A DNA stretch of 63,623 nucleotides, the filler included, from Hausera hauseri (lineage: Eukaryota): assembly GCA_046269625.1 (NCBI GenBank). It is 11 parts of 11 records of this genome, joined end to end, with 100 filler letters (N's around TTAATTAATTAA, not from the genome) between each part and the next. Parts side by side here need not be neighbours in the genome. Positions count along the whole stretch, not along the records: positions 53,082 to 59,509 come from JBJURY010101654.1; 10 more parts are not named here. One strand, 5' to 3'. This document shows positions 4,961-59,674 of the stretch, in pieces. A model generated the notes under the pieces. That model did not search any database, was not told where the DNA came from, and saw only the letters and a program-made list of their open reading frames with translations. Every line of letters begins with the position of its first letter. Positions within the stretch are counted from its first letter, which is position 1. A program made the position numbers and the translations under genes.

Positions 4961-5095
4961 TGAATGGTATCTTTCTGGGAGTATTATTAAGTCCAGGAGG
5001 TAAAACGATGCGGCTTTTGTTAATTGGATTAAGGTTAATGATCTATTACTTATACTATAGCCCTTAAGATTATTTGGGATTTGAGGTGTCTGGGG

Positions 5096-12354: not shown

Positions 12355-13980
12355 CCATTTTCTGAATGTTCATATTTAAAGGTTAATAGCTTTGGAAACA
12401 TTGTAAATATTGCGATGCAAATAGGGTCATTCGATTCGCATGAAAGAGTGTACTACAGGGTTACAATTCCGTTTAAATAGAATTTATGCAAGCAAAGTTA
12501 CAGAGTGCCGAAGTTGAGTATGACAAAACGTGTTTATTTCATTTTCTGAATGTTCATGTTTAAAGGTTAATAACCTTGGAAACTTTGTGAACATTTCGGG
12601 GCAAATGGCGTCATTTGATTCGCAGGAATGTGCTTATCACAGTCGCGCAATTCAGTTGAAACAGAATTTATACGTGCAAAGTTACAGAGTGGCGCATTTG
12701 AGTATGACAAATGTGTTTATTTCACTTTCTGAATGTTCATGTTTAAAGGTTAATAAACTTGAATACTTTGCGAATATGGCGATGCAAATGGCGTCATTTG
12801 ACTCGAATAAAATGTTCATCACAGTCGCACAATTCAGTTTAAATACAATTTGTATATGCAAAGTGACATATTTCCGCATTTGAGTATGACAAATGTGTTT
12901 ATTTCATTTTCTGTATATTCTTGTTCAAAGGTTAATAACCTTGGATAATTTCCGAAGATAGCGATGTAAATGGCGTCATTCGATTCATATGAATGTGCTT
13001 ATCGCACCCGCACAATTCAGTTTAAATAGAATTTATACAAGCAAAGTTACAGAGTGCCGCATTTGAGTATGACAAAAAGGGTATATTTCATTTTCTGAAT
13101 GTTCAAGTTTAAAGGTTAATAACCTTGGATAATTTGCGATCATTTCGATTCAAAAGGCCTCATTCGATTTTAATGAAAGTGCTTATCACACGCGCGCAAT
13201 TCAGTTTAAATAGAATTTACATATGCAAAGTTCCAGAGTGCCGCATTTGAGTATGCCAAAACGTGTTTATTTCATTTTCTGAATTTTCATGTTTAAAGGT
13301 TAATAAACTTGAATACTTTGAGAATATGGCGATGGAAATGGTGTCCTTCGATTCGTATAGAAAGGTTTATCACACTGGCACAATTCAGTTTAAATAGAAT
13401 TTATACAAGCAAAGTTACAGTGTGCCGCATTTGGGTATGGCAAAATGTGTTTTTTACGTCTTCTGAATTTTTAGATTTAAAGTTTAATAGCTTTGGAAAC
13501 TTTGTGAGTATTTCGATGGTTATGGCGCCATTCCATTCGCACGAAAGTTTTTATCAAACTCGCACAATTCAGCTTAATTAGAATTTATACAAGAAAGTTA
13601 CAGAGTACCGCATTTGAGTGCGGCACAACGTGTTTATTTCATTTTTTGAATGTACATGCTTTAAGCTCCATAACTTTGGATCCATTGTAAATATTTCGAT
13701 GCGAATAGAGCTGTTCGATTCGGAGTAAGGGGCTTATTTGAGGCTTAGAATTCCGATTAAATTAGATTTGTACCAGCAAAGTTCCAGAGTGCCGCATTTG
13801 ACTATGAGAAAAAGTGTTTATTTCGTTTTCTGAATGTACATGTTTTAAGCTCCATAACTTTGGATCCATTGTGAATATTTCGATATCCATAGTATGCTTC
13901 GATTCGGATGAAAGAGCTTATTTGAGTCTTTAAATTTTTTTTAAATTGGATTTGTACCAGCACAATTTCAGGTTGCCTCA
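12355..13980. repeat. Tandem satellite, ~184-bp unit, 9 copies
   Basis: Anchor (c/t)tg of ttttctgaatgttca recurs at 12362, 12546, 12729, 12911, 13095, 13279, 13463, 13646 and 13830. Confidence 0.95.
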
Positions 13981-14019
13981 TGCATTTTCTGACTTCGACC
14001 CACAAATCGATTAATTATG

Positions 14020-20389: not shown

Positions 20390-21065
20390 CGTCATTAAAA
20401 ACTTGCTGACATAAAAAGTTGCGACACAAAATATTGCTCACGTATAAGTTGCCAACACGAAAAAGTTACCAACATTGAAAAGGAAAAGGTTGCCGTCATC
20501 AAAAATTACCGACATGAAAAATTTGCCAATGTAAATGCTGCTAACACAAAAAAGTTGCAACCATTAAAAATTGCCAATACAATAAGGGTTGCCAACATGA
20601 AAATGTTGACAACATTTAAAAGTTGCCAAACTGAAAAAGTTGCCAATGTAAAAGTTGCAGACATAAAAAGTTGCCGCCATTAAAAATTGCCAACATGACA
20701 AAAAATTTACAACATGAAAATGTTGATGACATGAAAAATTTGCTGAACTGAACAAGTTGCCAACTTAAAAGTTGCAGACATGAAAAGTTGCCGCCATCAA
20801 AAATTGCCGACGTGAAAAAAGTTGAAAACGTAACAGTTGGAGATATGAAAAAAGTTGCCGACATGAAAAAAATTTGCCGACATGAAAAATTGTCGAAATA
20901 AAAAACGTTGCCAACCTAAAAGTTTCCATCACGAAAAGCACCAACATGATAATTTCCAGAGTAAACGTTGCTGTCATTAAAAATTGACAAGATGATCAGT
21001 TGATAACATGAAAATGTATCCACATGAACAGTTGCCAACAAGAACAAATTGGCCAACATGAAAAT
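20390..21065. repeat. ~20-21-bp minisatellite (aaaagttgccaacatg-type)
   Basis: About 30 degenerate copies of aaa(a/g)ttgcc(a/g)acatga. Confidence 0.9.
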
Positions 21066-21770
21066 GATAATGATGTAATACCAGATAACTTACCTATCAG
21101 CGATGATAACTACCCCTTCTTTTAACAATAGGATACATGATGATGATGACTAACCTAACAACTCTGATAACTTCCCCTTCCTTATACGACAGGTCACCTA
21201 ATGCTGATGACTAATAACCCAACAAAGTTGCTATCTTCTCCTTCCTCATACTACCGGGTACATAATGAAGACTAATATCCCAACAACAGGTCACCTGATG
21301 CTGATGACTAACACCCCTAACAGCAGGACACATGATGACGATGACTACCCTAACAACGCTGTTGTTTTACCCATTCTTAATATGCCAGGTCACCTGATGA
21401 TGACTAATACCCCTAGCAACGCTGCTATCTTCCTCTTCCTTGTACTGCCGGGCACATGATGATAATTAACATCCCTAACAACACTGTTAACCTCACTTTC
21501 CTTATACGATAGGTTATCTGATGCTGATGACTAATACCGCTAACAAAAGGACACATGATGATGATGACGACGGATAAACTAACAACTTTGTTATCTTCCC
21601 CTTCCTTATACGGCCTGGCACATGTTGAAGATTAATAACCCTAACAACAGGACACATTCTGATGACTAACATAAAAACATAAAATCTCCCCTCTTGCTTA
21701 AACGACATGGGACATGATGATGATGATTATCCCAAACAAGCTGCTATCTTCCCCTTCCTTATACACAGGT
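21066..21770. repeat. Degenerate ~30/60-bp tandem repeat (cacatgatgatgactaa..ctatcttccccttcctta)
   Basis: Recurring gatgatgac / ccctaacaac / cttccttata modules. Confidence 0.8.
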
Positions 21771-26389: not shown

Positions 26390-28237
26390 ATGTGTAACAT
26401 TATTTGCATCCGTTGTAACTGGATATTTATAAATATGTCGTACGCTTCGACGTTAATTATTTGTTTTGCAGGAATTGTGCTTTCAACAACAGCTTCATTA
26501 TCGGAAACGTCTATTAAATCTAATTCTTTATACGAAACTCTTTGTGTCATCTTCGAATGTATTCATTCTCTTGGTCAATGTGGTGCTTTGAAAATTCTTC
26601 CTGTTGGTAACTTAACAAATGACGAATGGCCAACAAAAACTACTATTGCTAAACGGTGTTTTGCGTAAGTCAGAATATTGTTTGGTCCCTAATATTATAT
26701 TTCTTTCAGCTACGTTCGTGGTACTTACAACGCAAAAGTTAAGGAAGGAGCTTTAAAAGCACTCGCTGGATTAGCGATGGGTGAAACTGATAGTGATTTT
26801 TCACCAATTATTATTGAACTTCTTATGCAAACATTTTCTGTAAGGGTTAATTTTATTTTCACAATTTCCGTCCGTTATTAGATGAAAGATCCACTTTTAC
26901 ATCGGAGTATAGCTCAGACAATCGTTTGTACTGTCATGAGAACCCATTCACCTACCAAAGGTCGTTGGTATTCACGCCGTTTTGGTAGTCCAACGGAGCA
27001 GTTGAAACATTCCGATAGTGGAATATCAACTAACCTGCAATTAGTTCTAAACAAAATTCATGACATTTTAATGCAAAGCAACAACATTAGTAGACATAAT
27101 GTTACCATTTGGTGTTTGTCTATTGTTCAGAATTTGGGATGGGTTCCGAATTTTAATTTGTCAATGTTGCATTCACGGATATTGAATATGTTGGGTGATA
27201 AAGATGAAACTACACAGGATACAGCTTCCCGAGTGCTAGTTTCGATTTATCAACATAGCCAACCTGAAGAGAGACGATTAATGTCGGAAGAATTTACCCA
27301 AGTTATTTTATACGGCCAAAGAGGTCGTATTAATGTTGATAATAATTTTACAGATACTAAATTACAATCACTGACATATTTCGTTAATGGTGACAAACGT
27401 GAGTTTACTGTTCTCAGTGAATCCGATCTGAGTGCAACAATTAATAATATAAAACAAATAGCCACTAGTGGACAAATGAAATTGCATCAGGAACTCATCA
27501 AATTACTCCAAATGAATTTAGCAAAAATTAGCCAATTCATGGATCTCAGCAATTTCGTATTCCATTACATCAATTCACATAAACCAAAATCGGCTATTAA
27601 ATCACACATACATGGACTCGATCAAACTATACATAACAATATTTTGACTAAGTTGTGTGATTTAATACTGAGTGAACCGACTTTCAGTAAATTACGTACA
27701 GAAGAACAAATGGAATACGCTGTCGATTGTATTCTCAAATTATCTAACTCGATGCAGGGTCATCGAAGTTATCTCCAGTCGATGAAAAGACCCGGTGAAC
27801 TCGATGAACGAGTGGTATATTTTCCGGAGACGTTTTATGACGAATTTATACAAATGACCGACGATGAATTCCAGAGTTACCAAAATGCACCGACAGCGTC
27901 TCGTACCAAAATAAAAATATCGTGCCAACCCTTAATTTTATTGCTACCCGTGGGTGCCTTGAGCGACAACGTTAGGACAACCTGCACTGAATCAACAAAA
28001 AGGTCGGTGAATTTGCTATATTTCTATTTCGTTATAATTCATAAAATTATGCCAACCAAGGCCATACCAACCGAAACCATATTCCACGTCATAACACTAG
28101 GTGCTAATCTGAAACATCTTATAATCAATGCTATTAAAAATACTCATCCACAAATTTCAGATTCAACTTCTCTTCGATGCATAATGCAATTCATATGCAA
28201 TTCAGTATTTGAGTTCAGCCCGTCTTCAACATTGTGA
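26390..28237 (+). CDS. ECM29: ECM29-like (proteasome adapter) gene segment with short introns; 3' part of the ORF not recognisable
   Basis: KVKEGALKALAGLAMGE, RHNVTIWCLSIV and LGDKDETTQDTASRVLVSIYQ..LYGQR match ECM29 HEAT repeats. GT-AG introns at 26665-26709 (45 bp) and 26840-26881 (42 bp) restore the frame. Confidence 0.7.
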
Positions 28238-31384: not shown

Positions 31385-33480
31385 GTATCGTGAAATTTCT
31401 TCGATCCACCGGTTTAACCTACATGTCGGGTTATTTGCCCGTCCTTTTAACGTTGTAACAGTTTGTGATCGGTAACTATAATAATTTTCTGTCCGTAAAC
31501 GTAGACATTAAAATGTCTTAAAGCTTCTTTTATGGCTAGTGTCTCTAGTTCAGTAACTGATTAGTTTTTCTCCGCTTTCTTAAGCGATCGCCGTCCATGC
31601 GTAATTGGGTGTTCCAACTATTTATCTTCCTGTTTCTGAGCCAATTCGTAACCAATTCCCTCTTTACTGGCATCTGTTTTAATTATAAATGGTAAATTAA
31701 AATCGAGATATATTAGCACTGGTTCACTTGTTAGAATTTTATTTATTTAATCGAACGCTTCCTGTTCAATATCAGTCCATTTTCATTTGATACCTTTTTT
31801 AACAGACGATATAATGGTGCATTTATTTTCCAATTATCCGGCACATAAGTGACATAATATCCACATAAGCCTAACCAATGTCTTAATTCTTTGTGAATCT
31901 CGGGTTCCATACAATCCGATATTTTGTTTAATAAAGATTTATCTGATTCTGACCCTCCTTCTCCAACTATATGTCCGAGATATGATACAGAATTTTGTGC
32001 CAATTTACATTTCTTTGGGTTCTGATTTTAATCCTGCCTGTTCCAACCGCATAAGAGTGTCTTCGATGTCCTTTAGGTGTTCCTCTCCTATCCTTGATGC
32101 TATCATTACATTGCCTAAGTATGCGAATGCATGATCGAGTCCCATTAGCATTTTATTCATCATTCTGGTGAAGATAGCTGGGCCGGTAGTTATACAGAAC
32201 GGCATAACGTAAAATTCGTAAACTCCATTGTGTGTTTTAAATGCTGTTTTATAACGATCATCTTCTTCAATTTCTACTTGCCAATATCCTGATTGTAGTT
32301 CCAGTGCGGTAAACCACTTTGCTCCTGATAATCGGTCTAGAGATTCTTTTACTGATGGTAGTGGAAATGAGTCTTTTATTATCAGCGTGTTCAGGGATCT
32401 GTAATCTATACATAAGCGATGTTTTGTGGTATCCTTTTCTTGAACATGAGTATTGGCATGTAGCAAGACCGATAGCTTGGTCGTATTATATCAGCCTTTA
32501 ACATACGTTCTACCTCTTTGGTTATTTCGGGCCTTAATGAAAGGGGCGTTGGGTACCATTTAGGCATCTTTTGCTCTTCCAAGTCAATTTTGTCATTGGA
32601 GCCAGGTTTCTTTTTTAGTGGAATCGTTAGTCTTAACGTTTTTGCTCTGCCTATATCTTCCTCATTTTGGGCAATAATCCACTTATATTTACATAATAAT
32701 TCGTAAAATTGACAATATGCTTCGGGTGAAAACTTTGTTTCTACATGAGGTGGAAACTCGGCATATTTTAAGATTTTTCTTTGATCGTTATTGCCGATAC
32801 CTTATAAGTATGACCCAAGATAGTATTAGCATACAATTTTACAGAAGTGGGCGTATTATTTACTAATCTGACTGGTACTCTTCCTGTCACTACTCTTGTC
32901 AAAATGTTACTAAGCATGGTATTTAGATTAATTTCGTCTTGGGGTTCAAAATATACTAGTTGGTCGTCGTCTTCGCGGATTTGAGCATAAATTAATATTT
33001 CGGTTCTAGGCGGAATATTTTCGTCGACGGGGATCTATACTTCTCCTAGCTGTCTTTCTTTCATTGTTTTAATTCCTTTCGCTGGTCCCAATTCAAGTAG
33101 CTTTTCAGTCTTCAAGTTTATTGCGATATTGTGTAATTGTTTCAGTATATCGCAACCTAACACTACATCATCAGTTAATTGATCCATTACGGCAAACTCG
33201 TGTCCAAGTATTTGGCCCATTAACTGAGCTAAGGGACTCCATTTAAATTTCAGTTTAGATTCTTGCCCGAAAGCTCCTATGCTGCCTGGGTCTGACGATG
33301 ATACTGGCTGTAGTTGTTTTCGTAATGTCGGCGGTATTAATTCTAACTTGATGAATGATTTCTCTGATCCGGTGTCGATTAAGGCATAGACTTCCCAATC
33401 TTCAATAGTAACTTTTGTGAAGGGTCTCCCTTCCATAACTGTTCTATAACAATTTGACACGTCTGCTGTTCGTTTAATTG
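31385..33480 (-). mobile_element. Ty3/Gypsy pol (family A): protease, spacer, RT, RNase H (pseudogene)
   Basis: GRPFTKV..YALIDTGSEKSFI..VVLGCDIL; RLCIDYRSLN, ELQSGYWQ, AYLGNV (mutated YxDD); IKTDAS, ELETLA. Very similar to 17526-19466. Confidence 0.95.
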
Positions 33481-34081
33481 TAGAAATCTTATGTCCGTTT
33501 ATCGTTATTTCTGGTAATGAAATCATGTTCTCGGTCGGCTGTTTCAGTTCTTCGTTAGGGTATAAGTCGTTCATTGCTACGCTACCTGCATTGCTTCTAA
33601 TTAATGGTTGTTGAATTATTTGGTTTTGAAGCAATTTCATTCCTTGTGTTCCCCAAACTGTTGATTTTGTCTCTATATTACGATCTATTCTCGGCCAGTA
33701 CAATATCCTGTGGTCACCTTCCGCTCGTCGTTGATTAGTGATCTGCATTTTCTTTAATACTCCGTATTGTTTTGTTCCTTCATAAGGGTCCTCATAGCTA
33801 AAAGGTCTTCGACAGAAATCCGATTTGTATGACACCATAGATGTTCTATCGCAATCGTCGTATAATGGAGCCGTTGGCGGCATGATGGGCAAAAGTGCCT
33901 TAATTACTGAATACATTTTATGTCTATTTTGTTTGAGGATTGCTTCTCCTCCCTTAGGCTCGTCATCATCGGAGTCATTTCTTCGTGTTGTTAATTTCTT
34001 AGCTTTGTGTTTCAATAGAAACGTGGGTCTTGCTCATTGTTTATAATTATGATAGCCGACGTGGCGTTCAACGTCATTTTT
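33481..34081 (-). CDS. Linker between glycoprotein and protease, in frame with both; contains PTAP and LYPNEEL
   Basis: Part of ORF 33035-34015. Only two in-frame stops (TAG at ~34083, TGA at ~34035) separate it from the glycoprotein tail. Confidence 0.6.
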
Positions 34082-35930
34082 CTATCGGTTTTCGTCGTAT
34101 GCTTTAAGCATTTTGCCGAACGATGTGATGATTGCGGTTAAGATCTTGCAGGAAAATCCTGTTAGCGTAAAGATTTCGTACCCGTTTATAACCGCTTGGA
34201 TTACCGCTTTTACTAGTTGTACCAAGAAACAGATTGCTAAAAATCCAGATGCGGCTTGTCCAAAAATGAAAAATCGTCCCCATATTTTGTAGAATATTTC
34301 TGTGGTTACCCGTTGGTAATGGTTTGCACCAAGTAATGATTCGAATTTAGCCTAATATCGAGTATCGTCAACTACTGATGCCATAGCTCGATTTAATTCG
34401 TGTGTTCTCTGTCGTGGGAAAGCAAGGAATTGTCGAAAAGCTTCGATTTCTTTAGGCCTGTAAATACCTTTTTGAGATGTATCCTGAAACTTATCATCAA
34501 TAATTCCTTTTGCTAAATTAGTTCAAGTTAGTTTTTAGGAATGATAGTAACGCCTTTATTAGGTAGGCTAACCCAATCTGTTTCGCTACGCCTAAACATT
34601 GGTTCACCCAGACTTGCTTTGCAATCCTTTACGATGGTTGGTTGCGTTGCATTATCAAGCAACACTCTAGTGAGAGGCATGGATAGATGTGGAGTGTTTT
34701 GGTAGATTACAGGGAGCTCTTGTGTGCATTGTTTTTCTTCGACATTAATTGGTACGTCTCTTTTCTCTCACTCGTAGGTCAGTAGGACCTCGCGAGTAAC
34801 TCGCCGAAGATTCCTTCTCTCATGGGAATGATCGGTGAAGCTAACTCAGGGTTCGCATAAATAAGATCTAATTATGTCCTCATAATTTCCGTATTTAATT
34901 TGCAGTCGTTGGTTATCATTTTGTAATATAGTTCGGCTATTACGACTTGTCCTTTTTAATAAAAATAATCGTCTCGGTTTTTTAGATAATCTTCGATTCT
35001 AATGTCTTGCGTTTTTAAGTTGTAGGTTTTCGAGCTTATCTCCGCTTCTGCGACGAAGAACTGTTGGTAGTTAGTGGTGAACATTATTACTTCGCAACGT
35101 GAAGTCATTTCCCTTTTTATGAATTTCAATCCATACTGATCAGAGATTAATATCGTAAGTGTATAATGTTTTGATACGTCTTCATGTGCTCTTAAATTGA
35201 TGTCGGATTTGTCTACGTATCGTTTTCCGGTAGTTTCAGGTCCTTAGTCTTAATGAAATTACTGCCTTTTGCAGCGAGCGGTTCCCATATGACGACAGAA
35301 CTTCTGAAAGCACACGTTTCGTCTTGTATGTGACATTTTGGTTCTTGGTATAGAGCTTAGTAACGCAATGGAACATTACCTTCTGTACTCGCATTTCTGA
35401 TTCGTAAAAGTCTACTACTACTACAGTTGCTTCCAGACCTTTCCAGTGTCGTATTCTGCTCCGCTACAATGTCCGTTGTGCATTTCCAGCCTTCCAACTA
35501 CTATTTTATATGCTATGATTACCTTTCCGGGCTGCATTTCTAATTCGATGCTATCACATTTTAGTCTTCCCGTCTCTCTGGCCTGTTTACAATGTTGCAT
35601 TTTTAAATTCATGGGAATTGGGGGGGGGGAAGGTCGTTGGTTTGATTATAGAGGAATTTCCGTGCATTAGTCCACAGTGAAAGATACTATGAGATCGTCT
35701 CAGCATACATTCCATGCCATCCAAAGATATCAACTCTTGTTGTTGGTATAGGAAGTAGCTCTCTTTCTTTGTTTCCAATTTATGTTGTCTGGCATCCTCA
35801 CATGATTCTAAGTCCATTAGGGAATATTTCTGTCCAAGTTTAAATCTATCGCAATCGTAAACGGTAACGACGCCCATGTGTTTTATCAACATCATTATGG
35901 TGAGTAAACTGATTAACCAATTAAATTCAT
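34082..35930 (-). pseudogene. Chuvirus(Jingchuvirales)-like fusion glycoprotein (env), copy A
   Basis: Signal WLISLLTIMMLIKHMGV; VYDC..KYSLMDLESC..YFLYQ..ECMLRRSHSIFHCG; GHCSGAEY...VW; GIYRPKEIEAFRQFLAFP; TM region KIWGRFFIFGQAASGFLAI..KAVIQAVINGYEIF..GFSCKILTAI. Confidence 0.8.
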
Positions 35931-36249
35931 TCTTTCGGTTGTTATTATCCATTGTCGTCAAGTTCCGTATGACATCTCCTAGTCCTTTATTAGTATTCCT
36001 CTTGTCTTCTTCCTTGTCAAACAATTTTGGCCAATTTACTTCACATGGTAGCTTCCTAGATGCTTTTCGCGCCAAACTTGTAGTTCGATTTAGTTCATTT
36101 TCTTGATTTGGAATTGTCTTAATTGCCAAGAACAATAATACTTTTCTTAACTCTTCGGTGGTATTTTCCACCATAATTTTCTCTTCTATTGCGTCGTCCG
36201 TTAGGCTGTTTTTAGACAGCTTGATACGCGAATTTCTCACTGTCCTAGC

Positions 36250-38226
36250 TGCGTTAAATATCGCCTTTTTTATCGTCTAATGTATCCCCTCGAAGGCTTG
36301 AATAATTTACGATACGTATTAAATTCTTCATTAACTCGTTTAACTCTTCATTGTTGGTGCTAAAGGTAGGAATCTACATTTGCCTTAGTTCTCTAAATAA
36401 TTCTCTGTTTTATTTGATTTCTTCTCGGGCTTTCCTAGGTCTTCCGACCGGGCGTTTAGGCTTTGGAAAATTGGTTATCATCCCGCTTAGTGGTACTAGA
36501 TTTTTGTCATATTGTTTCTTGTTTTCATCTGTCTGTAAATACTCGAAATACATTGCAGCGTCTTGTACTCTCATGATTTGCCCTACTCATTGTTCCGTTT
36601 TGGCCTTCCGCGTGGCCTCTTCTTTTGTCTGTTCGTTGGCTATTATTACTACTATCCGATTTGTTTCATCGGGAATAATTCCGACGTCTATTAACTGTTC
36701 TAAATCATCGAGTATTCTTCCTCTAAAGTAAAATCTGTAATTTAGCTCATTTGTGCCGCCATTGTTTAGTAACCATTCTCTTACGTTTTTTACATAGGAA
36801 TATGTAGTTAACTCACATTCTTTTTTTCCCATCCACTCAGATGATATTATTATTTTCATTGTTACCTCCGGTTTATCCTTCAAGATTTGCGCATACTTCT
36901 TTATTAAAAGTTTCGGCACCGTGTTGTAAATTATGTTTTCACTGGATAATTTAGTCAAAGTCGGAATGAGTTTTCTGAGCTTATTTTCAGTCATATTCAC
37001 ATTAATTGATTCCATCAAGTCCTTTTGGGTTAACGCTGAGTCTAGGAGCATCTCCACATTGAATTTCCTGTTCTGCGGATACATTTCTATTTCATCTAGG
37101 TGTACTGGCGTTACCGGGTTTTCAGCCGTTATTTCTTCTAAGTAAGCATCCCATTCTAGTTCATTCCCAATATCTAGGAGTCCATAGTCTACTAGAGCTG
37201 TGTTTGTTTTTTGCACAATTCCTCGAATTTTTTTTAGTCTTGGTTGCATTTCTTTCATCTGCGTAGTTCGGAAACCTATTCCGTTTCCACAAGCATATTG
37301 AATCTTTTTCAGTAGTTGGCCTAATTCATTAGAATTGATGAATCCTTTATGGTGATAATCAGTTAGTTCAATAATTACGTCGCTTTGCCGTCTGTATACG
37401 AATTCTTGCTTATTTTTGATTTCTGATTCGGTAAAAGCGTATTTATTTCGGTAACCTTTAAACTCTTGCTATTTCATCTAGCCTTATTTCTCTTTATTTC
37501 ATTCGGATGCACGTTTCTTCTACTTGGTGTAATTTAGGCATTAACTGCCTCATCTTTTCATCATTAATCTCCGCCATTTCTACCAATACGTATGCTAGCC
37601 CATACAGTTCATTTATAATTTTTGAGTGGGAATCCATTGCGTCTAGCAATTTCTTTATAAACTTAGATTTTTCGACACTAAGACTTTGGTTGTTTCTTAT
37701 TTTTGTCAATTCGGTATGGTAATTCTGATCCGTACCGGCCATCCATTCTCGTGGTTTATGCAAGAATCTTACTGCTTCTATTAGGGCTGCTCTATATTCT
37801 TGGCAAATATCTAAGGTTTCGATATCCTGGATTAAAATCACGTCGATAGGTTTCTCTGTTAAATGTTGGATTTCTTCTAGTCGGATGCTTCTTAACCTTG
37901 AGTAAAAATTGCAAGTCATATTTTGCTTTTCTGTAAAGTTCGTTTCTTCGATTATTTTATAGATCTCTTCCAATGTTGTCATTTCTTGTTTCTTCGTCAT
38001 AAAATTTAATTGTCGTAATGATTCGAATCGTGTCCGGATGTCTATTTTTGCCCGTATGGTGTTTAAGTTATGTGCAACTTTTTCTAGTTGCTTTTTTACA
38101 GATGGTTCGCTTTCCGAAAATTCTTCCTTACTGTCTTCTATTAACTTACTTAATCTCGTTATTAATTCGGACCATTCCGACTGTTGGTTGGCAATTATCG
38201 GTTTTGCTAATATTGCCTTGTCTAAC
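36250..38226 (-). pseudogene. Decayed 5' coding region of the family A element: helical ORF, ubiquitin-like domain (36859-36640), AT-hook-like motif (36431-36463)
   Basis: NVREWLLNNGGTNELNYRFYFRGRILDDLEQLIDVGI aligns without gaps to ubiquitin [48 protein letters not shown] lies in the same frame after one TGA. Confidence 0.6.
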
Positions 38227-38326: not shown

Positions 38327-38615
38327 CTTATTATACATAGAGGAAGAACCTTATAAAAGTGATGTTTGTGGTAACAGATTTAATTACAAACATAGTCTAA
38401 CGACACGCAGATTGTTACACATAGGGAAAAAACCATATAAATGTGATGTTTATGGTGAAATGTTTAATCGGAAAAGTCACCTAAGGAGTCACAAATTATT
38501 ATACACAGGGAAAGCCCTTATAAATGTGATGTTTGTGGTAAAGGTTTAATCAGAAAGGTAGCCTAAGGAGCCACAAATTATTACACACAGGGGAAAATCC
38601 TAATTAATGTGATGT
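38327..38615 (+). pseudogene. Degenerate C2H2 zinc-finger array (~4 fingers)
   Basis: 84-bp periodic HTGEKPYKCDVCGKGF..H-type units with frameshifts and substitutions. Confidence 0.85.
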
Positions 38616-38619
38616 TTAC

Positions 38620-42882: not shown

Positions 42883-44560
42883 TCATTAACTACCATATCG
42901 GAAAAAGAGTACTACGTTTATCAAGAGTCAGAGTTTGTGAAAACTAAGGTGAAAGAATGTTTCGTTCGAAAAAATCATTTTCATTTTATTTGTGGATATT
43001 GATATCGAAATTCAGAAATACTCGAACCAACTACCCCATTCGAGCCACTTCCTATAAGCAAACGAATATGCATAGAGGCTTTTGTGACAAAACAGAATAA
43101 TATTGGCAATATTAGACTGAAAGCTTAGAAAGGAAAAATTATTGATAAAAGAATTTTCGTGGCTAGAACAATTGATAAGACGGGATATTGTAAGGTTGAG
43201 TCTTATAATATCAGTGGTCAAATTTTAGATAATATAGTGGCTATTGAAGATTATCAAGTCGAGCTGAGAGAATACGATGCCCTCTTCGAGCTATCTTCAG
43301 AAAAGATGATGACATTTCCTGAATGTGACTATTATAATAAAGAATGTGACAATGTGGAATCAATTATGTCATGTGAAGTCGCTAGAGATCAGTATCAATT
43401 AGCTTTATTAAAAATAGGAAAGTTTAACGAAACAAAAGGACAAATGTCCAAAGAAGAAATATCTAGCAGCAGACTAGACCGAGTATCGGATATGATTGAG
43501 ACTCCAACCATAGTATATTTAGCAAATCCTCAAGACGGAATAAGATTAGAAAGTGATACTAGGAGATGTGACCACACAGTATTTTGAACAAATTATAAAG
43601 GGATATTCTTATATACAGCAGAAATAACAAAAGCTAAGAGGAAAATTGACAAATCGGAAGTGAAGCCTCATCTTTATTTCGATAATAGGATTGATTTATT
43701 TATCACTTCCAGCAAGAAAATATCTATGCTATGTATCGAGAGATAATATTAAACGATTATAAATTGAACAGAGAGAAAACTAGAAACCGAATATAGCTGT
43801 CAGCGATAACGGACGGAATAATAAAAGATCCAGCCGAATCCCCCGATACAGATGGGAAGTTTGCCCGAACAATAGGTGATACGCTTGTAACTTTTGAGTG
43901 TACAAAAGTAACTGTCAAATTAAGACCAACAACCGACTGTACCATAGAGTTATGTATTTGGTACAAAGAAAAACCACGTTTCTTGCAACCAATCACCCGG
44001 ATATTATTAGATCCGGCAGAAAAACCATATGTACATCAAAATTGTACATATACTATGTCGCCAGCATATCGATTAAGCGACAATTTATGGATAAGGATGC
44101 CCAAAAAGGAGCAGATTACTCCACCTCGAAGGATTAGTTTAATCAATTTGAAGACCGAACAAACATACATGCCATTGACAGATTTGGTAAAGATGGGTGT
44201 GTATTCCGAACAAGATATGGAAAATCATAGAAGAATGATGATGTTCCTTTAGCAGAGACAGAAAATTCTAACAGAGATGGCAATGAGAGTGTTAGCTGAT
44301 CACACCGGGAAAGCTAACTGGAAAAATTTGATGGGACCAGAATATGCCAAGAAAATAGCTAAAGATATATTTGCGACCGAATGGGGATGGTATATTTGGT
44401 TTGGTCAGTTTAATTCTGGATGGCTAGGATTTTATTATATCTTTGCCTTTATGAAAGCAATTCTCACAATGATAACAAAGGCTATGGCATAAAACAAGCT
44501 GCTGGATGTACTTGGAATATCATATATGCATTAATTCCATCAGTTGCTAGTTGTTGCTAG
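42883..44560 (+). pseudogene. Chuvirus-like fusion glycoprotein (env), copy B
   Basis: YYVYQESEFVKTKVKECFVRKNHFHFICG; IDKTGYC; GKFARTIGDTLVTFECTKVTVKLRPTTDCTIELCIWYKEKPRFLQPITRIL; GVYSEQDMENHRRMMMF; WGWYIWFGQFNSGWLGF..KGYGIKQAAGCTW. Confidence 0.82.
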
Positions 44561-46949
44561 AAAGACGCAGAATGGAAACAAAAAAATAAGAAAAGGGATC
44601 ATTCAAATGACAATAAGGAGTCACCTACTATAGAAAGAATATGGAAAACGAAACCTAAGTCACTTGAAAATACTAAGAAAATGTGGAGCCTAATTACAAC
44701 ACAAAGTAAAATGAAAAGAACGTTATTCTCAGACATTCCACAAGTAAAAGGGTGGAATGAATACCTTCTGGAACATCAGCAATATATAGATATACACTGT
44801 TCTAGTGATATCGATAACTCTGATCCCAAGTGCATGGAGCTAACATTTTACCCATCAGCCTCAAAGAAAGATTTGATAACCAGTATAGTCGGTGGTAAAG
44901 TAATACCAAGAACAGTGACTTGGATCGATGGACACCCTATTACAGCGATAATTGATACGGGAGCATCAGCTTCAATGATTTCTCGGAAACGATTACCAGA
45001 ATCACTAAAGGAGAAACTACAAAAACCAACAGAAGCCATTACAAATGTTGGAACCTTTGGAACTAAGGTACAAGTAAAGGATTTAATTAAATGTGAAACT
45101 AAATTTCTTAATCAAAAATTTGAACAAGAATTTAGAATAGCAGATGAATTGGTAGCAGAAGCCATACTTGGTTGTGATGTACTAGCGAAATTAAAAGATA
45201 TGTGTATAAATTTGGAAACCCAACAAATTCAGCGGTTAAGAAAAATGAAAAATGAAAAAAAAAGATACGGTATCTATCAAAGAAGATATAATGATACCAG
45301 CTAGAACAGAAGTCGTACTCAAAGCTATAGTACAGAGAAAAGATGAAGGAGAAGTTTATATTGAACCGAATTTAGGCTTTATGGATGAAAATGAATTATG
45401 GATGGCTCACATAATTGATAATATCCGAGAACAAGTGATTGTTCGAATAGCCAATGTCTCAAGTAAACCTAAACTTCTTAGGAAAGGAACCCGGATCGCC
45501 TATGTGTACATTATGAAAGATATAGGCTATAACGCAATAGAAGCAAAGTTTTCAACTGCACAAGAAATATCCGAATTTGTGGAAAAACAACGCCAAAAAT
45601 CACCAGAAAAATGTGGAATACGATTCGAGGATGAATCAATGAATAAATTAAAAGATCACCTTAATAAAAGTAAGAAAGTAGTAAAACTCGCAAAAACTCC
45701 TATCAATTGGAATGACTATGATTTGTTTGGAGAAAACAGTACATTAGCAGATAAAGAAAAAGAAGATATAGTCAGAATATTACAACAGTAACGAGATACC
45801 TTCGCAATAGATGAATATGATATGGGTATAATACCCGTTATCAAACATGAGATCAAATTAAAACCTGGAATGGAGACTCCTATTAAAAAAGGCCATATAG
45901 ACTCAATTATGATAAAAGAGAAAAAGCTAAATAAATAATAGCTGAAATGAGACAATATGATATAATTAGAACACGTAATTCGTCATGGGCAGCTCCCATT
46001 GTAATGGTACAAAAGAAAGATAGATCGATCAGAATGTATGTGGACTATCGTGCTTTAAATGAAGTAACAATAGATAATACTTATCCCTTACCCAGAATCG
46101 ATGAGTTATTAGACAAGTTAAAAGATAAAATGTTATTCACTACGCTAGTTCTACAGAAAGGATTCTAGTAAATAGAAGTTCAGGAAAAAGATAAACAGAA
46201 GATAGCTTTCGTAACTGCGGACTGACATTATGAGTTTAATCAAATTGCTTTTGGGATGAAAAATTACCCAGCAACGTTCCAAACAGCCATGTACATAACT
46301 ACATTGGATGCTCCACACATAACGTGTTATGTGGACGATGTTATAATCGCTTCTACGATTCTAAGCAATATAAAAAGCATCTCAAGGATATACACGAAAG
46401 ATGTGCATTGCTTGGAATAAAAGTGAGTCTTAAGAAATGCTGTTTCGCGCGGACCCAAGTAGATTTTTTAGGTATACAGTGAGCAGAGAAGGCATTAATC
46501 CTCGAATTGAATAAATAAAAATTCAGGTTCCTAAAACAGTTAGAGTCCGAAAATTTCTTGGTCTTACAAGTTATTATCGAAAATTTGTTAAGGACTACCA
46601 ACAAATAGCCTCTCCGCTGCATTCGTTATTACAAGAAAACTCTAAGCTCGTCTGGACTCAAGAATGTCAAAAAGCGTACCAACAGTTAAAGGATAACTTA
46701 TTAGCTCCGCCAATATTGGCTTATCCAAACATGTCGAAGCCATATTTCTTAGCTACAGATGCGAGTAAAGTCGGAATCGAAGTTGTTCTATTACAAAGAG
46801 ACGATCAATGACACGAACACTTAATATCGTTTGGAGGTAGAAAGCTAAGAAAACCTGAGAAAAACTACTCCACAATCAAAAGAGAATTACTTGCAATTGT
46901 ATATGCGTTGGAACAGTATGGACAGTATTTGTCGGAGACTAAACCAATC
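44561..46949 (+). mobile_element. Ty3/Gypsy pol (family B): linker, protease, spacer, RT, RNase H (pseudogene)
   Basis: TAIIDTGASASMI..ILGCDVL; SSWAAPIVMV, YVDYRALN, YPLPRIDELLD, CYVDDV; LATDAS, RELLAIV. Close relative of 7069-7908 (shared LDAPH before YxDD). Confidence 0.95.
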
Positions 46950-52577: not shown

Positions 52578-53660
52578 TATTTATTATCGGCTTTCCTCGA
52601 TTGTAGTTACTTCCGGTATTGCTTTCTTCACTGTTTATTTCTCCGAACGTAGCGTGACTTCGCTTAGTAAATTTTTCTTTGTTTTGTTTCCGTCTATCCT
52701 TTTGATCCAGTCTATCCGTTTCATGAACTGTTTCAGCAGCAACTCGTTTAGTTTCTGCTACATTTTCAACCCACAATTTCAACTACAAAATATCCGGTTC
52801 TATTCTCTTCCTTTTTCTGTAATTTTCTCACCGTTCGATCAGAACTTCTACCTATGGTGTCCACCATGCTTTGGGCCTCTTGGTCCATTTCAGCTGGGTA
52901 CGGGCGGGTATGTTGGCTTTGCACCGTTTGCCGGAACAGCTTATCCTCCTTCAGAGATTTTTGCCGTGGTCGTGTCCATCCNNNNNNNNNNNNNNNNNNN
53001 NNNNNNNNNNNNNNNNNNNNNNNNNTTAATTAATTAANNNNNNNNNNNNNNNNNNNNNNNNNNNNNNNNNNNNNNNNNNNNTTTTGAGAATAGAAAAACG
53101 TACATAATTGGACGAATTTTAACTCCAATTAAAAATAGTACTGTACTGGTAGAGTGGATAAAAGATAATGGTAAATTTCATAATCGACATAAAATTGGAT
53201 TACACGGTAAATACGAATTAATCATGGTATCAAAAAGGGATATGGATAATCTAAAAACAAAGGAATAGGTACTGAAGCGATTCACAGATTCTTTTATTGA
53301 AAGCAGGTCATCGGCTGAAGTACAACTACAATCAAGAGATGAAGCACAGAAACTTTCTTGTCAAGATTCATATTCCTGGATTACAGACCCAAACGCTTCT
53401 ATTCCTGTCTGGACCTCCAGTATTTCCAGCCAAAAGAATTCTAAATTTCTTACATTATCTGACAAAGACAATTGGGGAGAAACTCAACAGAATAAGACTG
53501 ATGACAAAGAAGTACGAAAACTTCAGGAGTTCGTTGAGGACTTTGAAGATTACAATAAATTGGTAAAGTCCCAAACAGAAGAATTTGAAATTCATGATGG
53601 AAATAATGATGATGAAAACATACTTGCTGATTTGTCTCCGCAAAAAAAAATCTGGATTAA

Positions 53661-56600
53661 ATGGCCGTCATTAATTCATGTGCGTACAGTGAATGGATAG
53701 AAGTTTCAATCAATAAAACAGCTGGAGTTTCCATAAAGAATAGTAACCAGTTATTATATAAAAGTGGTTCTCTGAATAAACAGGCAGGTTTAAGAAAGTT
53801 GGAACTTCTACGATCTGTTGCAGAAGCTTATGAGTTTCAAAATAAAATAATTGAACATTATATAAAAGAACAACGTGATAACTTGCCAGTTCAAAGCTCT
53901 TTTAATGCAATGAAATTTAGTGGAGAAGATAAGAAATGTAATATTGATTTTAATGATTGCCAGAGTTTTAATGTTAATTTGGTAGCAGATCATAAAAATT
54001 ACATTATTAATTCTGAGCCATCAGTAACAAACGAATGGAAAATTTTAATTGTTCAACGCAAATCAGACAGACAAAAAAAGCGGTTGGTAACGCTAATGGA
54101 TGACTTCGAAAGAGATATACACATTAGAAGAGTGAGGAGTTCTAAAGAATCTAGCCTAATAATTAAAATATCTCGCAGTACTTGCTCATCAGATTCCAGA
54201 AGTGCTCCAATTGATCCTCAAAATGGTGACGAAGGTGGAAACTTGTCTATGTGTAGTTACACTGATGTCAGAAAGTATAAATGTCCGATCAACTTTTATC
54301 TAAGTTCTGACATCAACGATTCTGGTAAATATTCATCGGAATCAGAACATGTTAAAGTAGGTTCTATTGCCAAAAAACAATCGATTAATATACGAAACAG
54401 TGATATTAACAACTTAAGAAATTCCGAAGAGAAGTCGATTCAGATAAAATGGCACGATAATCGAGACAATGAGGTAATTTTAAATTTTTATTTTCGTCCA
54501 AAAATGTATTCCAATATATTAGCTGAATTAAATTGTCTAAAATTTGAAGGACAAGTAGAAAGAAAATTAAATCGAATAAAAGGAAAAAATTATAGAATAA
54601 AAAAGGTTTTGAGATTTAAGAGAAGTAGTGAATTATCTGTTGAAGTTTCTTATATTGATACATGGGTTGTTTTATGTCCATTGAGCAATTATAAGCATTT
54701 GAAAGTTTATACGTTTTCTAGCAATATATCATCGCAGTTTATTCAAAAATCATGTCTAAATATCATAGTAAACGACATTCAAGTATTTCAAGTTTTAATA
54801 TTAACTTATTATTATACTTTTGATATACAGCTAGTCATTTCTACTATTCCTATTAAAGCATTGATAGATGTCTATAAACAGTTGGATAGCGAAAAAACGT
54901 TTGCTAATATAAATGATGATGATATTCGATCTATTTATAAGATGTTGGTTAAAAGATTGATTTGGGCCGAATGTCGTCAATTCTATATATGGGTACTTTG
55001 TCCAACCAAAGTCGTTTTAGCGGAACTCAAACATGGCAGAAATGAAATACAAAAGTCTGTTGACTATGAGAAAATTGTAAAATACTCCAATCATTTTGAG
55101 ATGTTATTTAATGGGTCGAAATATTTGGTTATTGTTTTAGAATTTTATCGATTTAAGATCCCTTGTGAAATAATCGAGGTACGAATTAAAATGACTGAAC
55201 CAGGAACGATGTATTTTGCTAAATCTGTTTCATATGCATTGAAATATGTATATTCGAATGAAATCATTCATTACAATATCATATTAGAAAATGCCTTTCT
55301 TAATGAGTCCATAATAGGGAAAGTTGGTGATTTCGGGTTGGCAATAATACTGAAACCAAGCATTGAAAAAACTCTTATTATATGTGGTACGTCGAACTAT
55401 ATTGTTTTGGGAACGCTGAGAAATTTACCTTATTCCTATAAAATTGATACGTGGGCATTAGAATGTATAAAATATATGTTTCAGGTTGGCAAACTTCCAT
55501 TTGAAAACTATACCCAACACGCGACTTTTGAAAAAATCAGAAATAAAAATATTAATGTCCAATATATCGATATTGATAGTCAGGAAACCCTACTCACACT
55601 GTCGGACGCGTCGAAAGACTTACGGAATAAATTAAAGACCGTTTTAACATTTCTGAGAAATTTTAAATTATTGATAAAGATGGGTGGAGAGAAAGGAAAG
55701 GTGTCAGAAATAAAATTGATGATAAGGTTACCGTCTTTGCAAGCGTGGTATGTTTCAAGGTTAGGGAAATTTTTTCCTGTTATCAACAATACCTCTCAAA
55801 TAAATTTTATCGACGAGTATAAACCTATCTTTCTGAAATTCGTTGAACGAAAAGGAGCAAGGCTGTTACCGATCGGTTCTGAAGAGATTGTTGATGGTGA
55901 TGTTAAGATGACACTTGTTATGATATGGATAATAAGAACTGAGAAAAATTCAAATAGCATCAAAATTGAATACGATGATGTGGTCACATTGGAACTTGGA
56001 TCAGTGCAACATAAGATCCTGGATAAGGATGTCGAGAGAAATGAAGAATTATATATTTCATTCAACCAAGAAATCGACAAAGTTCAGGCAAAATTGATAA
56101 TGGCCAACGTCAACATCCAACGAGCGTCATTTAGTAAGATTGAGAAAAAATCCGAGCAAAATTTAAAAGATGTTGGTAATCTGAGCCGCAAAGCTATCCA
56201 ACGAATGGAAAAATTAAACAAAGCTTGGAGTGTATTGAAACAGTGTCTCCATAATAAACATTTTGAACTTGAAGATGCATTAAAAGAAGCATTGACGTAT
56301 TATGGAGATTACCAAGAAATCTTAAAAAACATCGAAGAATTAACCAAAAAATTGGATAAACTTAAATTTTCTGGTGGATTTTTTCTCAATCTTGTGATTC
56401 GTCATAATGTTGATGCTGAAAACAATGATAGCGAATTGAAAAAGAAAATAGAAGAAATAGAGACTATTGAAAGCATTTGTTCAGAAAAACAACAAACAAT
56501 TCTAAATCTTGAACAAGATAAAGTTACGTTAAAAAACAAACTGCAAGAAATGGAATGTCGAGTTCAAGTTTTGAGTAATGAGAGAATTGATTCAGTATCG

Positions 56601-58894
56601 AAATCTGAAAAAACATTTGAAGAGTTTCAGATTTCTAATCGTTACAAAGATGATGTCATTGTTGGTTTACAATCAGAAATGGAAATTATTAAAAAGAAAT
56701 TAGACGAACTAGAGTTATTATATTGTGACTCTGAAACAAAAAACAAAAGGATAATTGATGAACTATCCAACAAAGAATCCATTGTGTTAGATTTATCGAA
56801 GAAAGTAGACGACAAGAAAAAGATAATTGAAAATATGTACAGCATCATTCATAAAAATAAAGTTCAAACCGAAGGAATCCTTCAGAAAATTATAGATGCT
56901 CTTGAAAATCGATGCACAACGTTCAATTGTGTGATTCCAGATGAGCAACTTGGAGAAATATCCTATGGCCTTAATTTTGAAGAAGAATTTTATCATGAAA
57001 AATCTGTTGTTTTAGTTTTTCGGACTCTTTATAAATTGTTGTCAGTCGCTGATAAATTGAATGATGAGTTACTTAAGAAAAATGAAGATACAAAGACGTC
57101 CGAAAGTCTGAATAATGAACTTTTGCAAGCTTCAAACAAGATAGACATACTCTTGCAAAAGTTAGTAACCATTATATCGGAAAATAAGAATTTGATACCG
57201 GAATCTTTGTATGAAGAAAATGAAGGATTCTTCGAAAAATTTGATAATTTAGAATTGTTGGTTCAAGGTATATTAAACGAGTTACGCTCCAAAAATATTG
57301 AATTAACAGAAATCCAAAATTATTGTAAAATTGTCATGGATGCGTTAGACTCAAAAAGTTCTGTTCCCGATTTTGATACCAATTTAAATTCATCTGTGAA
57401 GCAACTTTTTGAAAAACTTAAAATTGGTTTGGCAACAGCAACATCGGAAACTTCATTGAGAGATAAAGAAATTCAGAATCTCCAAAGTATAAATCAGTCT
57501 CTCGAGGAAAAAGTCGAAAAATCTCAATCCTTTTTAATATCTTTCTACAAACAGTTGATTAGTATATTTCATTTAACAAATACAGACTTAGACTCGAAAA
57601 CAAGTCGAAAGTTAATTATAAAGTCATTAAAAGAATACGTCAAACTTATGTGTAGTTTGGATAATGAGGTTTGTGAATTGAGATATAAATTACAAGCTAC
57701 TAAATTAGAATTAGAAAGGTCGCTGAGTGGAACTCGTGATTCCCAGAGTTAGATAACTTAAGAGAATCTTCAGGTAATAATCGTAATCGACTTATTTCTA
57801 CTCGACAAGATCTTGAAAATTCTTTACGTCGTCTGAATGAAGTTGCTGATGAAAAGGGTCATATCGATGAAGAAAAACAAACATTGAGGAAAGAATTGAA
57901 AGAATTAAATGAAAAGATTAGTTTACTGAAGATTGAATTCGAAAGGCAAAGTAAAGAGAAAGAAAGATTAGAAATACAATTCGATGAATCTTTAGAAAAA
58001 GTCCGACGTAATCATACCGCATTGGAAGAAACTTACAAAAAAGAACTGGAAAAGCAACACGGTTACCAAAAGCAATTGGAAGAACAAATTGTTTCTCAGC
58101 GCGAGTCTAATTCACGTCAGATTACTGAGCGAGAACATAAAGCAAATGAAAAATTAGAACAAGTTTTGAACCAAAGTGAGGAACTGTTGACCTTGAATCA
58201 CCAGTATAAAACATTGCTTGATCAAGCAAAGCATGAGGCTCAAAACGTTACAGAGTCGCTGAGAAAACTGGAAAACGATTATGATATTATAGTTAAGAAA
58301 GTAACAGATATTAAATGTGATAATAAAAACTTATCAGAAAGCTTATTAAGTGTGAAGATGTTAGAAACTACATCTATGGAGCGTGATGATTTACAAAGAA
58401 AAATATCCCAGATGCGATTCGAAAATAACAATTCAGTAGAATCATTGGAACAAATTTCATCTAATGAAGACACATTAGAAATCTTTACAAAAAATGACCA
58501 AAATACTATATCAGACGATTTTATGGGTGATTCCAACATAATCCCTGTAAATGATGGTCTTTATAACGCAGAGAACTTAAAAATTGACTCTGATAACAAT
58601 GCCGTTTCTGACGATATTGATGAAACCTATTATCATTTGGTGCCGAAATGCATATACACTGAACCAATTGATTATCCTGTGAATGAACAAATCGATACAG
58701 ATATTATCAGTTTACCCAATCTGCCCGATTTCATGCCATCTATTGTAGCTAAAACGAAAGTATTGCAGTTACTTGAGGTTCCCATTAATCTCGTTAATAA
58801 AATGTTAATGAAAAGAATAATGCTATCTTCGGTATATGTTGGACAATTGATTGAAATGACTTCGGGTGATCTCATAACTATTCAAGGTGACTAA
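53661..58894 (+). CDS. Intronless mosaic ORF (1363 aa plus a frameshifted continuation at ~57745): EGF-like bits, PLK-derived pseudokinase, polo-box remnant, CH fragment, spectrin repeat, long coiled coil
   Basis: FSG..KCNIDFNDCQS; IIHYNIILENAFLNE..KVGDFGLA..ICGTSNYI..IDTWAL..GKLPFE; LPSLQAWY..NNTSQINF; LKFVERKGARLLPIGSEEIVDGDVKMTLVMIWII; LNKAWSVL...LEDAL. Confidence 0.7.
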
Positions 58895-59674
58895 TTTCTT
58901 GTTTCTGAATTCCTTGAAATTCATTTGTCCTTGCTAATTAAACCAAAAGATTCGTTATAGTCGGCACAACTAAATAATTACAAACGTTCCAGATTTTTTG
59001 TTGCAAAACCAGCCGAAATATTCATTGATTCGATAAAAATCTCAAGCAATCCAGGACATGAGTTATGGGTTGTATCACCTTCTCAACAAGTGAAAGTCAA
59101 TGGTAAATTATACGTATTAGAGGACTGTTACGAAAATAAAGACAGTTGGAATGAATATTACACCACATTTTTACAAAGAAGTACACGAATATCTAATGAA
59201 TCCAGTTCAACTTTTTTTCAATCAGGTCCTTGAGTCTCAAATGGCAAAAATACATAGAGAAGTCTAAGACACTTAAAACCTTTTCTTCAAGTGCGGTAGA
59301 GATTTTGTAAAAGTCCAGACTTATTCGAATTTCAAAACAAAATATAAATTCAAATTATCGCAGTATTTTGAGTGCGATGAAAATATAATGTCCAAGGCAG
59401 TTAATTCTCCAACCATCCTTCATGCAATTTTTACCAAATACACGATTCCTCGTAATCATTTAATGTGTTATTTACTATTTAGCAACAATGATCTTACTGA
59501 ATTGTCTTTNNNNNNNNNNNNNNNNNNNNNNNNNNNNNNNNNNNNNNNNNNNNTTAATTAATTAANNNNNNNNNNNNNNNNNNNNNNNNNNNNNNNNNNN
59601 NNNNNNNNNACACAAAGCTATTCTACATCCTCAACATTGTCCTCAAATTTGTGATTTAATTTTTAAGCCATATA

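Follow-up and report, generated by a model that had tools for sequence, protein, structure and literature searches.

An open frame of joined and decayed host-gene fragments in Hausera hauseri: the frame is kept, the protein is not

How does a reading frame remain open over more than 4 kb when every domain that can be identified within it is cut? The question is raised by a 6.4-kb contig (JBJURY010101654.1, positions 53082-59509) of Hausera hauseri (assembly GCA_046269625.1), which lies in a window of 63,623 nucleotides (nt); the window, meaning the whole stretch of DNA analysed, is a chain of 4-7 kb contigs with N linkers between them. The contig carries a mosaic frame, open reading frame 1 (ORF1), of 1363 codons free of stops. 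Its composition would lead to the expectation of ~116 stops, and the longest frame reached in 200 shuffles was 163 codons, figures which are subject to the caveat that the frame had been selected for its length. An earlier note on this DNA had described 53661-58894 as one patchwork frame, inferred to result from serial cDNA or exon capture. The single frame holds for 53661-57752, whereas 57740-58894 is a second frame (ORF2) beyond a frameshift. Two DNA runs, X1 and X2, contain the stretch; the sample behind X1 may be that of the assembly itself, or a pool.

Frame and protein in the captured pieces

ORF1 is composed of truncated host-gene fragments from distinct genes, and every identified piece is in sense orientation and in frame. 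The best defined is a Polo-like kinase (PLK), in which amino acids (aa) ~457-632 match the kinase domain, with PLK2/PLK1 as the best PDB entries (E 1e-26), and aa 633-724 match the PLK1 polo box (E 4e-6). Both had been recognised in the earlier note, and the changes it listed are borne out: the N-lobe start is missing, HRD is replaced by HYN (55269-55277) and APE by VLG (55404-55412). The DFG motif is retained, while the Gly loop, the region of the catalytic Lys and the C-lobe end are absent. Compared with one homologue, the kinase piece corresponds to residues 7-173 and the polo-box piece to residues 389-480, back to back, and therefore ~215 aa have been removed in frame from PLK1. The complete PLK1 architecture (full N-lobe, HRD, APE, full C-lobe and two polo boxes) is not present in ORF1, and an identity as active PLK1 was rejected since the domain is cut and its motifs are changed. 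Further along, aa 725-761 match the CH1 domain of alpha-actinin (E 7.8e-7), with 22 of the 34 aligned residues identical to alpha-actinin 1 by a count from the alignment; this is the alpha-actinin-type fragment of ~35 aa already suspected. The PLK1 and alpha-actinin pieces come from distinct donors.

The decay of these pieces was gauged with a PLK alignment, for which 115 of 182 stored proteins passed the motif filter and 99 were left after removal of short and redundant ones. The kinase piece retains 28 of 49 near-invariant residues, compared with a mean of 97% and a minimum of 84% among the 99 homologues. Its retention ratio is 0.59, 0.57, 0.50 and 0.47 from the most to the least conserved class; the six most divergent homologues retain 0.90-1.01 in the top class. 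The polo-box piece likewise retains only 4 of 8 top columns (45 homologues). Neutral decay to the level of the kinase piece (~0.25 substitutions/site) would introduce 3.8-5.2 stops in ~173 codons, and neutral simulations stayed open in 10, 18 and 4 of 1000 runs under three models; the piece itself has zero stops and zero frameshifts. In four divergent relatives, 116 substitutions are accompanied by 3 frameshifts, a rate that predicts 3-7 more breaks in the kinase piece, and none was observed. For ORF1, the listed substitutions (n=57) comprise 17 synonymous, 39 missense and 1 nonsense, against 14.0 synonymous and 3.3 nonsense expected (p 0.22); they were drawn from the best-supported rows (40 of 339 and 40 of 161) and come partly from dead versions. 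The reading frame is kept and the protein is not: the decay is blind to conservation, and no amino-acid constraint shows in the differences between versions. The rarity of open frames in the neutral simulations, together with eroded pieces that are unbroken, supports selection on an open frame, where the earlier note had suggested selection on translation.

It could be argued that no selection is involved, the donors having been degenerate open paralogues or older mosaics already, the joints having fallen in frame by luck and the frame being simply young and singled out for its length. Relatives with the same degenerate kinase features do exist, many of them frameshifted, and in-frame longest ORFs are common in young retrocopies mediated by long terminal repeat (LTR) elements, as described in the available portion of Tan et al. 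(2016; PMC5131818). However, the PLK1 and alpha-actinin pieces, which are unrelated, have both been eroded and have both stayed open, some six joints are all in frame, and the argument merely shifts the frame-keeping onto the donors. We consider it quite improbable.

Alternatively, the mosaic may belong to a young host gene family, its protein being made and useful (as coiled-coil bulk, a decoy, or a surface or secreted protein) under relaxed or diversifying selection. A frame open through ~0.25 substitutions/site and near-identical long contigs over 53922-56360 would fit such a family, and the available text of Weisman (bioRxiv 10.64898/2026.08.09.743762) offers a duplicated Drosophila chimera under purifying selection. 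On the other hand, there is no synonymous excess between versions, the loss of residues ignores conservation, the domains are cut mid-fold, the start codon is probably incidental with broken flanks, and the deepest form in X1 ends at codon 1124. Among the best 150 matches from 1.84 billion representative proteins, moreover, there are only generic kinases. A working protein is thus rather improbable, and the young chimeric gene of the earlier note finds no support in that sense.

The database searches behind this statement were of several kinds. A whole-protein search returned one unrelated kinase among 7988 candidates and a search of shorter proteins returned 13 generic kinases. In a HMMER search of the 1.84 billion representatives, the best 150 matches were all kinase-led and 25-40% identical, with no relative beyond generic kinases. 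The named kinase matches come from nematodes, a cnidarian, a placozoan and a nemertean and so point to no particular taxon. Searches for a viral or metagenomic origin found no relative, and an Rfam scan gave one match, by chance.

The remaining pieces are less distinct. The spectrin repeat of the earlier note persists as a weak similarity (Pfam E 0.042, below cut-off), the segment matching designed helical proteins only in PDB, and its MIB/HERC2-like fragment upstream of ORF1 is also weak (Pfam E 0.098, below cut-off). Its EGF-like bit has no Pfam or PDB match, and the region coincides with a 48-nt GT-AG stretch. No PDB match was found for aa 1-446, nor any match for aa 88-459 among 2004 longer candidate proteins or in an Atlas search. 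A single-sequence structure model of aa 88-459 was unusable (predicted local distance difference test, pLDDT, 31), and the codon-position score was too noisy for classifying the two segments, B and C, that make up this region. The coiled coil and ORF2 have no useful PDB match, and the Atlas returned generic coiled coils only, with low recognition.

Versions, joints and contig layout

The mosaic is present in X1 as a family of versions. In total, 88 X1 contigs were aligned: 27 at 99+%, 14 at 95-99%, 27 at 90-95% and 20 under 90% identity. Versions that are 84-91% identical to ORF1 are often frameshifted, and near 57400 at least four overlapping versions occur, with three internal deletion forms listed. 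Divergent contigs break off at the joints, for example record 2 at 54466, record 4 at 55039 and record 8 from 56394, and the X1 loose end before 56394 is also open in frame. Record 6 (84% identical, frameshifted by a 2-nt deletion) matches exactly 55554-55823, and a hand translation of its loose ends (155 and 59 letters, assigned according to length) gives in-frame sequence resembling the polo-box flanks of PLK1 homologues, with the 3' side as the clearer match. As record 6 continues as polo-box sequence, a decayed PLK copy exists without the internal deletion and without the actinin fusion. At 56625, a 91%-identical frameshifted X1 contig departs from the coiled coil into 214 unrelated letters; this loose end, a possible intron donor or LTR start, had no match in the window and was used for no conclusion.

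Four joints (54466, 55039, 55554 and 55823-55943) are bridged by single X1 contigs, which cover 53922-54786 (2 differences), 54757-55240 (0), 55288-55652 (0) and 55623-56360 (1). The junctions, for which the earlier note had looked to read support, have contig support at these four internal places. Among the X1 pieces listed (8 of 49 and 16 of 114), none bridges joints 53922 and 56376-56394. In X2, short near-identical pieces are found in 17 of 30 bins, and among the listed ones none crosses a joint.

These observations bear on a further explanation, that the contig is an assembly artefact stitched from collapsed repeats. The contig is a 6.4-kb piece between linkers, two of its joints are unbridged among the listed X1 pieces, and the full 1363 codons may mix versions. 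Nevertheless, single contigs cross the four internal joints with 0-2 differences, X2 contains near-identical pieces, and a misassembly would not leave six joints in frame. An artefact is highly improbable.

The plus strand is coding-like over nearly the whole contig, with a few stops and frameshifts before 53700 and after 57740. ORF1 is probably the unbroken middle part of a longer decayed mosaic. Its start ATG is probably incidental, because a 143-codon frame overlaps the start of ORF1 in another frame (Table 1).

Table 1. Features of the contig at 53082-59509, in positions of the window
Feature	Positions	Strand	Remark
Upstream frame, weak MIB/HERC2-like stretch at ~53128-53229	53083..53265	+	Ends at a stop, then resumes in the same frame
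143-codon acidic frame, overlapping the start of ORF1 in another frame	53269..53697	+	Frame and Pfam scans
ORF1, mosaic frame, 1363 codons	53661..57752	+	Frame scan
5' piece, aa 1-87	53661..53921	+	Long X1 contig starts at 53922
Segment B, aa 88-268	53922..54465	+	865-nt X1 contig (2 differences) spans the joint with segment C
AT-rich 48-nt stretch, intron-like with GT-AG ends, no break of the frame	53938..53985	+	Just inside segment B; not beyond chance
Segment C, aa 269-459	54466..55038	+	89%-identical frameshifted X1 relative aligns from 54466 onward
49-nt GT-AG intron-like stretch	54474..54522	+	Just inside segment C; not beyond chance
PLK1-type kinase piece, aa 460-631	55039..55553	+	PDB match; 90%-identical X1 relative matches from 55039
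PLK1 polo-box piece, aa 632-721	55554..55823	+	Adjoins the kinase piece in frame
Alpha-actinin CH1 C-terminal piece (37 aa), aa 725-761	55833..55943	+	E 7.8e-7
Linker and spectrin-repeat-like helical segment (weak)	55944..56375	+	Pfam Spectrin E 0.042, below cut-off
18-nt perfect inverted copy of 56136-56153, six codons in frame	56376..56393	-	Ends one base before joint 56394
Coiled-coil segment, aa 912-1363	56394..57749	+	2 nt missing at 57028 in the deepest X1 contig
ORF2, 384 codons: coiled coil resuming after a frameshift, then an acidic piece	57740..58894	+	Separate from ORF1
Decayed coding-like tail with stops, reaching the contig end	58895..59509	+	Frame and Pfam scans

Routes of capture and amplification

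The reading towards which we incline, tentatively and with less than even confidence, is that this host-fragment mosaic arose through template switching by a retrotransposon reverse transcriptase, was re-copied as non-autonomous cargo, and has been under selection for a translatable RNA rather than for a protein. The reverse transcriptase of an LTR element would switch between mRNAs and so build the mosaic, which would then be copied again as non-autonomous cargo. Nonsense-mediated decay (NMD) would remove copies that stop prematurely, and these would hence be re-copied less. In a more far-reaching form, the retroelements would constitute a system of fragment shuffling in which only NMD-proof RNAs are re-copied, multi-donor mosaics thereby remain in frame over kilobases, and long, unconstrained translated proto-proteins are maintained and amplified without function, as a nursery for new genes; this form is somewhat unlikely.

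One joint carries a trace of its making. An inverted filler of 18 nt precedes joint 56394, and inverted repeats of that length anywhere in the contig were reached by 1 of 500 codon shuffles. Inverted filler is a mark of a polymerase switching templates, and does not tell which polymerase. At 13 other candidate places, nothing rose above background. A 20-nt inverted repeat (90%; 58428-58447 versus 59486-59505) overlaps the X1 loose end at 58439; its exact match is 11 nt, within background.

The scarcity of introns is a second consideration. The myosin gene of the window (with a MyTH4 domain) has six introns of 45-115 nt, one of ~590 nt and exons of 108-650 nt, all borders having been set by eye, and the 'dense tiny introns' ascribed to the other genes were in this respect overstated. 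Compared with those exon lengths, ~5.2 kb of the mosaic contains at most two intron-like stretches. No intron-bearing relatives occur among the loose ends listed (12 of 63 and 6 of 29). An RNA intermediate would also fit the uniform sense orientation and common frame of the identified pieces, and the internal deletion within PLK1.

Much the same evidence may be read at the DNA level. Ectopic recombination, break repair with templated insertion, or a Helitron/Pack-type element may have assembled the mosaic, with in-frame filtering afterwards. The 18-nt filler, the intron-like stretch at the edge of each of segments B and C, host exons as long as 650 nt and the introns of a second mosaic in the window would agree with such an origin, as would fragments proliferating before fusion, described in the available text of Weisman (bioRxiv 10.64898/2026.08.09.743762). 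However, the identified pieces all run in the sense direction and keep the frame, ~2 kb of coiled coil pass without an intron, the intron-like stretches are within chance, and no element ends are found in the contig. This origin is unlikely. Of the serial capture proposed in the earlier note, capture from distinct genes is supported, and its source may be cDNA or DNA: no parent gene was found in the protein searches, and each identified piece other than the coiled coil could lie within one host exon.

The second mosaic (26540-28234, +) has HEAT-repeat-like exons with GT-AG mini-introns at ~26664-26708 and ~26840-26881, followed by a 451-codon frame with an insulin-degrading-enzyme-like piece (PDB E 1.7e-9, aa 215-338). 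Its HEAT part may resemble ECM29.

Several points weigh against template switching by a retrotransposon as the origin and against RNA-level selection as the cause. At 515 nt for the kinase, 270 nt for the polo box and 111 nt for CH, each piece could lie within one host exon. The intron-like stretches number 2 as compared with 0.55-0.59 expected, and 94 and 126 of 1000 shuffles reach 2. The mini-introns of the second mosaic suggest DNA-level copying there, and DNA break repair, too, typically leaves inverted fillers. Parent genes were not found in the protein searches described above. The loss of APE is apparently common to the relatives, no variant being present there among the 40 of 161 rows listed, and part of the decay is therefore older than the fusion. 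Apart from the choice of the frame for its length, several X1 versions are frameshifted. Over 56633-57418, a loss of 2 nt at 57028 puts a stop at codon 1124 in the X1 contig of greatest depth, so that the unbroken 1363 codons are not what is usual in X1. A difference in X1 depth, 21-37 in the long core contigs versus about 3-6 upstream, gives a hint of amplification of the mosaic core, although depth summed over contigs gives no copy number. What is observed comprises the distinct donors, the joints, the related versions and the pattern of decay, whereas the RNA intermediate, the LTR machinery, the amplification of the core and the NMD filter are steps that we infer.

The surroundings of the mosaic likewise give the retrotransposon reading no direct help. 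Within 53082-59509 there is no LTR, no transposon domain and no repeat shared with the rest of the window, and no long terminal inverted repeat among 25 of 38 pairs listed. Both contig ends lie in coding-like sequence, and therefore the ends of the unit lie beyond view. Gag, protease, reverse transcriptase and integrase gave no Pfam match in ORF1, in ORF2 or in the six frames of 53082-55040 and 57700-59509. A giant Gypsy polyprotein of the Burro type was rejected, as the contig contains no retroelement domains.

Gypsy relics fill the window, a point in favour of the retrotransposon reading, as is the precedent of multi-parent, multi-insertion LTR retrocopies (PMC5131818). Together with a Penelope-like frame and the intron-bearing myosin, the relics mark the host as an animal with AT-rich DNA. 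The Penelope-like frame at 10213-11760 (-) is open for 516 codons, with reverse transcriptase and GIY-YIG domains, and an open 366-codon frame at 3998-5095 (-), without a Pfam match, is one that we take to resemble a retroelement accessory exonuclease-like protein. Tandem arrays occur at 12356-13981 (184-nt unit, 8.3 copies, 80% matches) and at 20396-21770 (units of 16-17 nt and longer, in a contig without a long ORF). Decayed C2H2 zinc-finger-like repeats of 84 nt (38328-38617) are located directly upstream of the myosin gene fragment. Two decayed Gypsy relics, 32008-38225 (-) and 43129-45788 (+), carry, ahead of the protease, a fusion glycoprotein of Monjiviricetes type, and this env-before-protease order is that of Burro elements in the available portion of PMC6431247.

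Meaning and comparison with known systems

Gene birth by shuffling requires that fragments stay in frame long enough for trial. Frame maintenance and protein constraint are normally coupled, and at the mosaic locus they are separated. If selection on a mobile RNA is indeed what preserves the frame, then in such genomes its openness would say nothing for a function of the protein, gene counts would be inflated, and long chimeric proto-genes would have a measurable route of persistence. A family with dead and open members makes frame-only selection directly testable. In the open-access literature, narrow all-term searches found nothing on flatworm mosaics of such kind or on frames of captured cargo being kept open through NMD.

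The mosaic shares features with several known systems, each of which is compared here as far as the available portions of the sources describe it. Like Helitron or Pack-MULE capture, it holds several host fragments in one putatively amplified unit; unlike that capture, which takes up DNA and has element ends, it has no ends in view (Arkhipova and Yushenova; PMC6431247). Similarly, the giant planarian Gypsy elements Burro and GYPSM1 have very long frames, host-like domains and a coiled coil, but the domains of Burro are recognisable within a Gag-Pol polyprotein, whereas those of the mosaic are cut and decayed and are accompanied by no Gag, protease, reverse transcriptase or integrase (PMC6431247).

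A closer likeness is offered by animal retrocopies mediated by LTR elements, which combine incomplete pieces of two to four genes, in sense orientation and often in frame, with short de novo letters at some joints; some of them were inserted again, likely as non-autonomous elements (Tan et al., 2016; PMC5131818). The mosaic too consists of cut host pieces that derive from several genes and lie in sense orientation and in frame. It differs in having no visible LTR and in joining at least 4-6 donors over 4 kb in one frame. Erosion of its pieces has reached 30-45% without a break; of the older retrocopies, by contrast, 14 of 21 had loss-of-function changes (PMC5131818).

The tinkering loci of Drosophila and the Rcc1-Txl chimera arise by a DNA-level mechanism; single-protein chimeras there have two donors, and the dN/dS of the example is 0.43 (Weisman, bioRxiv 10.64898/2026.08.09.743762). 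Dense unrelated gene fragments, spread before fusion and duplication of the chimera afterwards are common to these loci and the mosaic; in contrast, the mosaic has more donors and no amino-acid constraint is seen. By analogy, the mosaic may work like multi-parent LTR retrocopies, and it resembles tinkering loci; it is a candidate member of either group. What is new beside them is the measured split of frame maintenance from protein constraint within a multi-version family.

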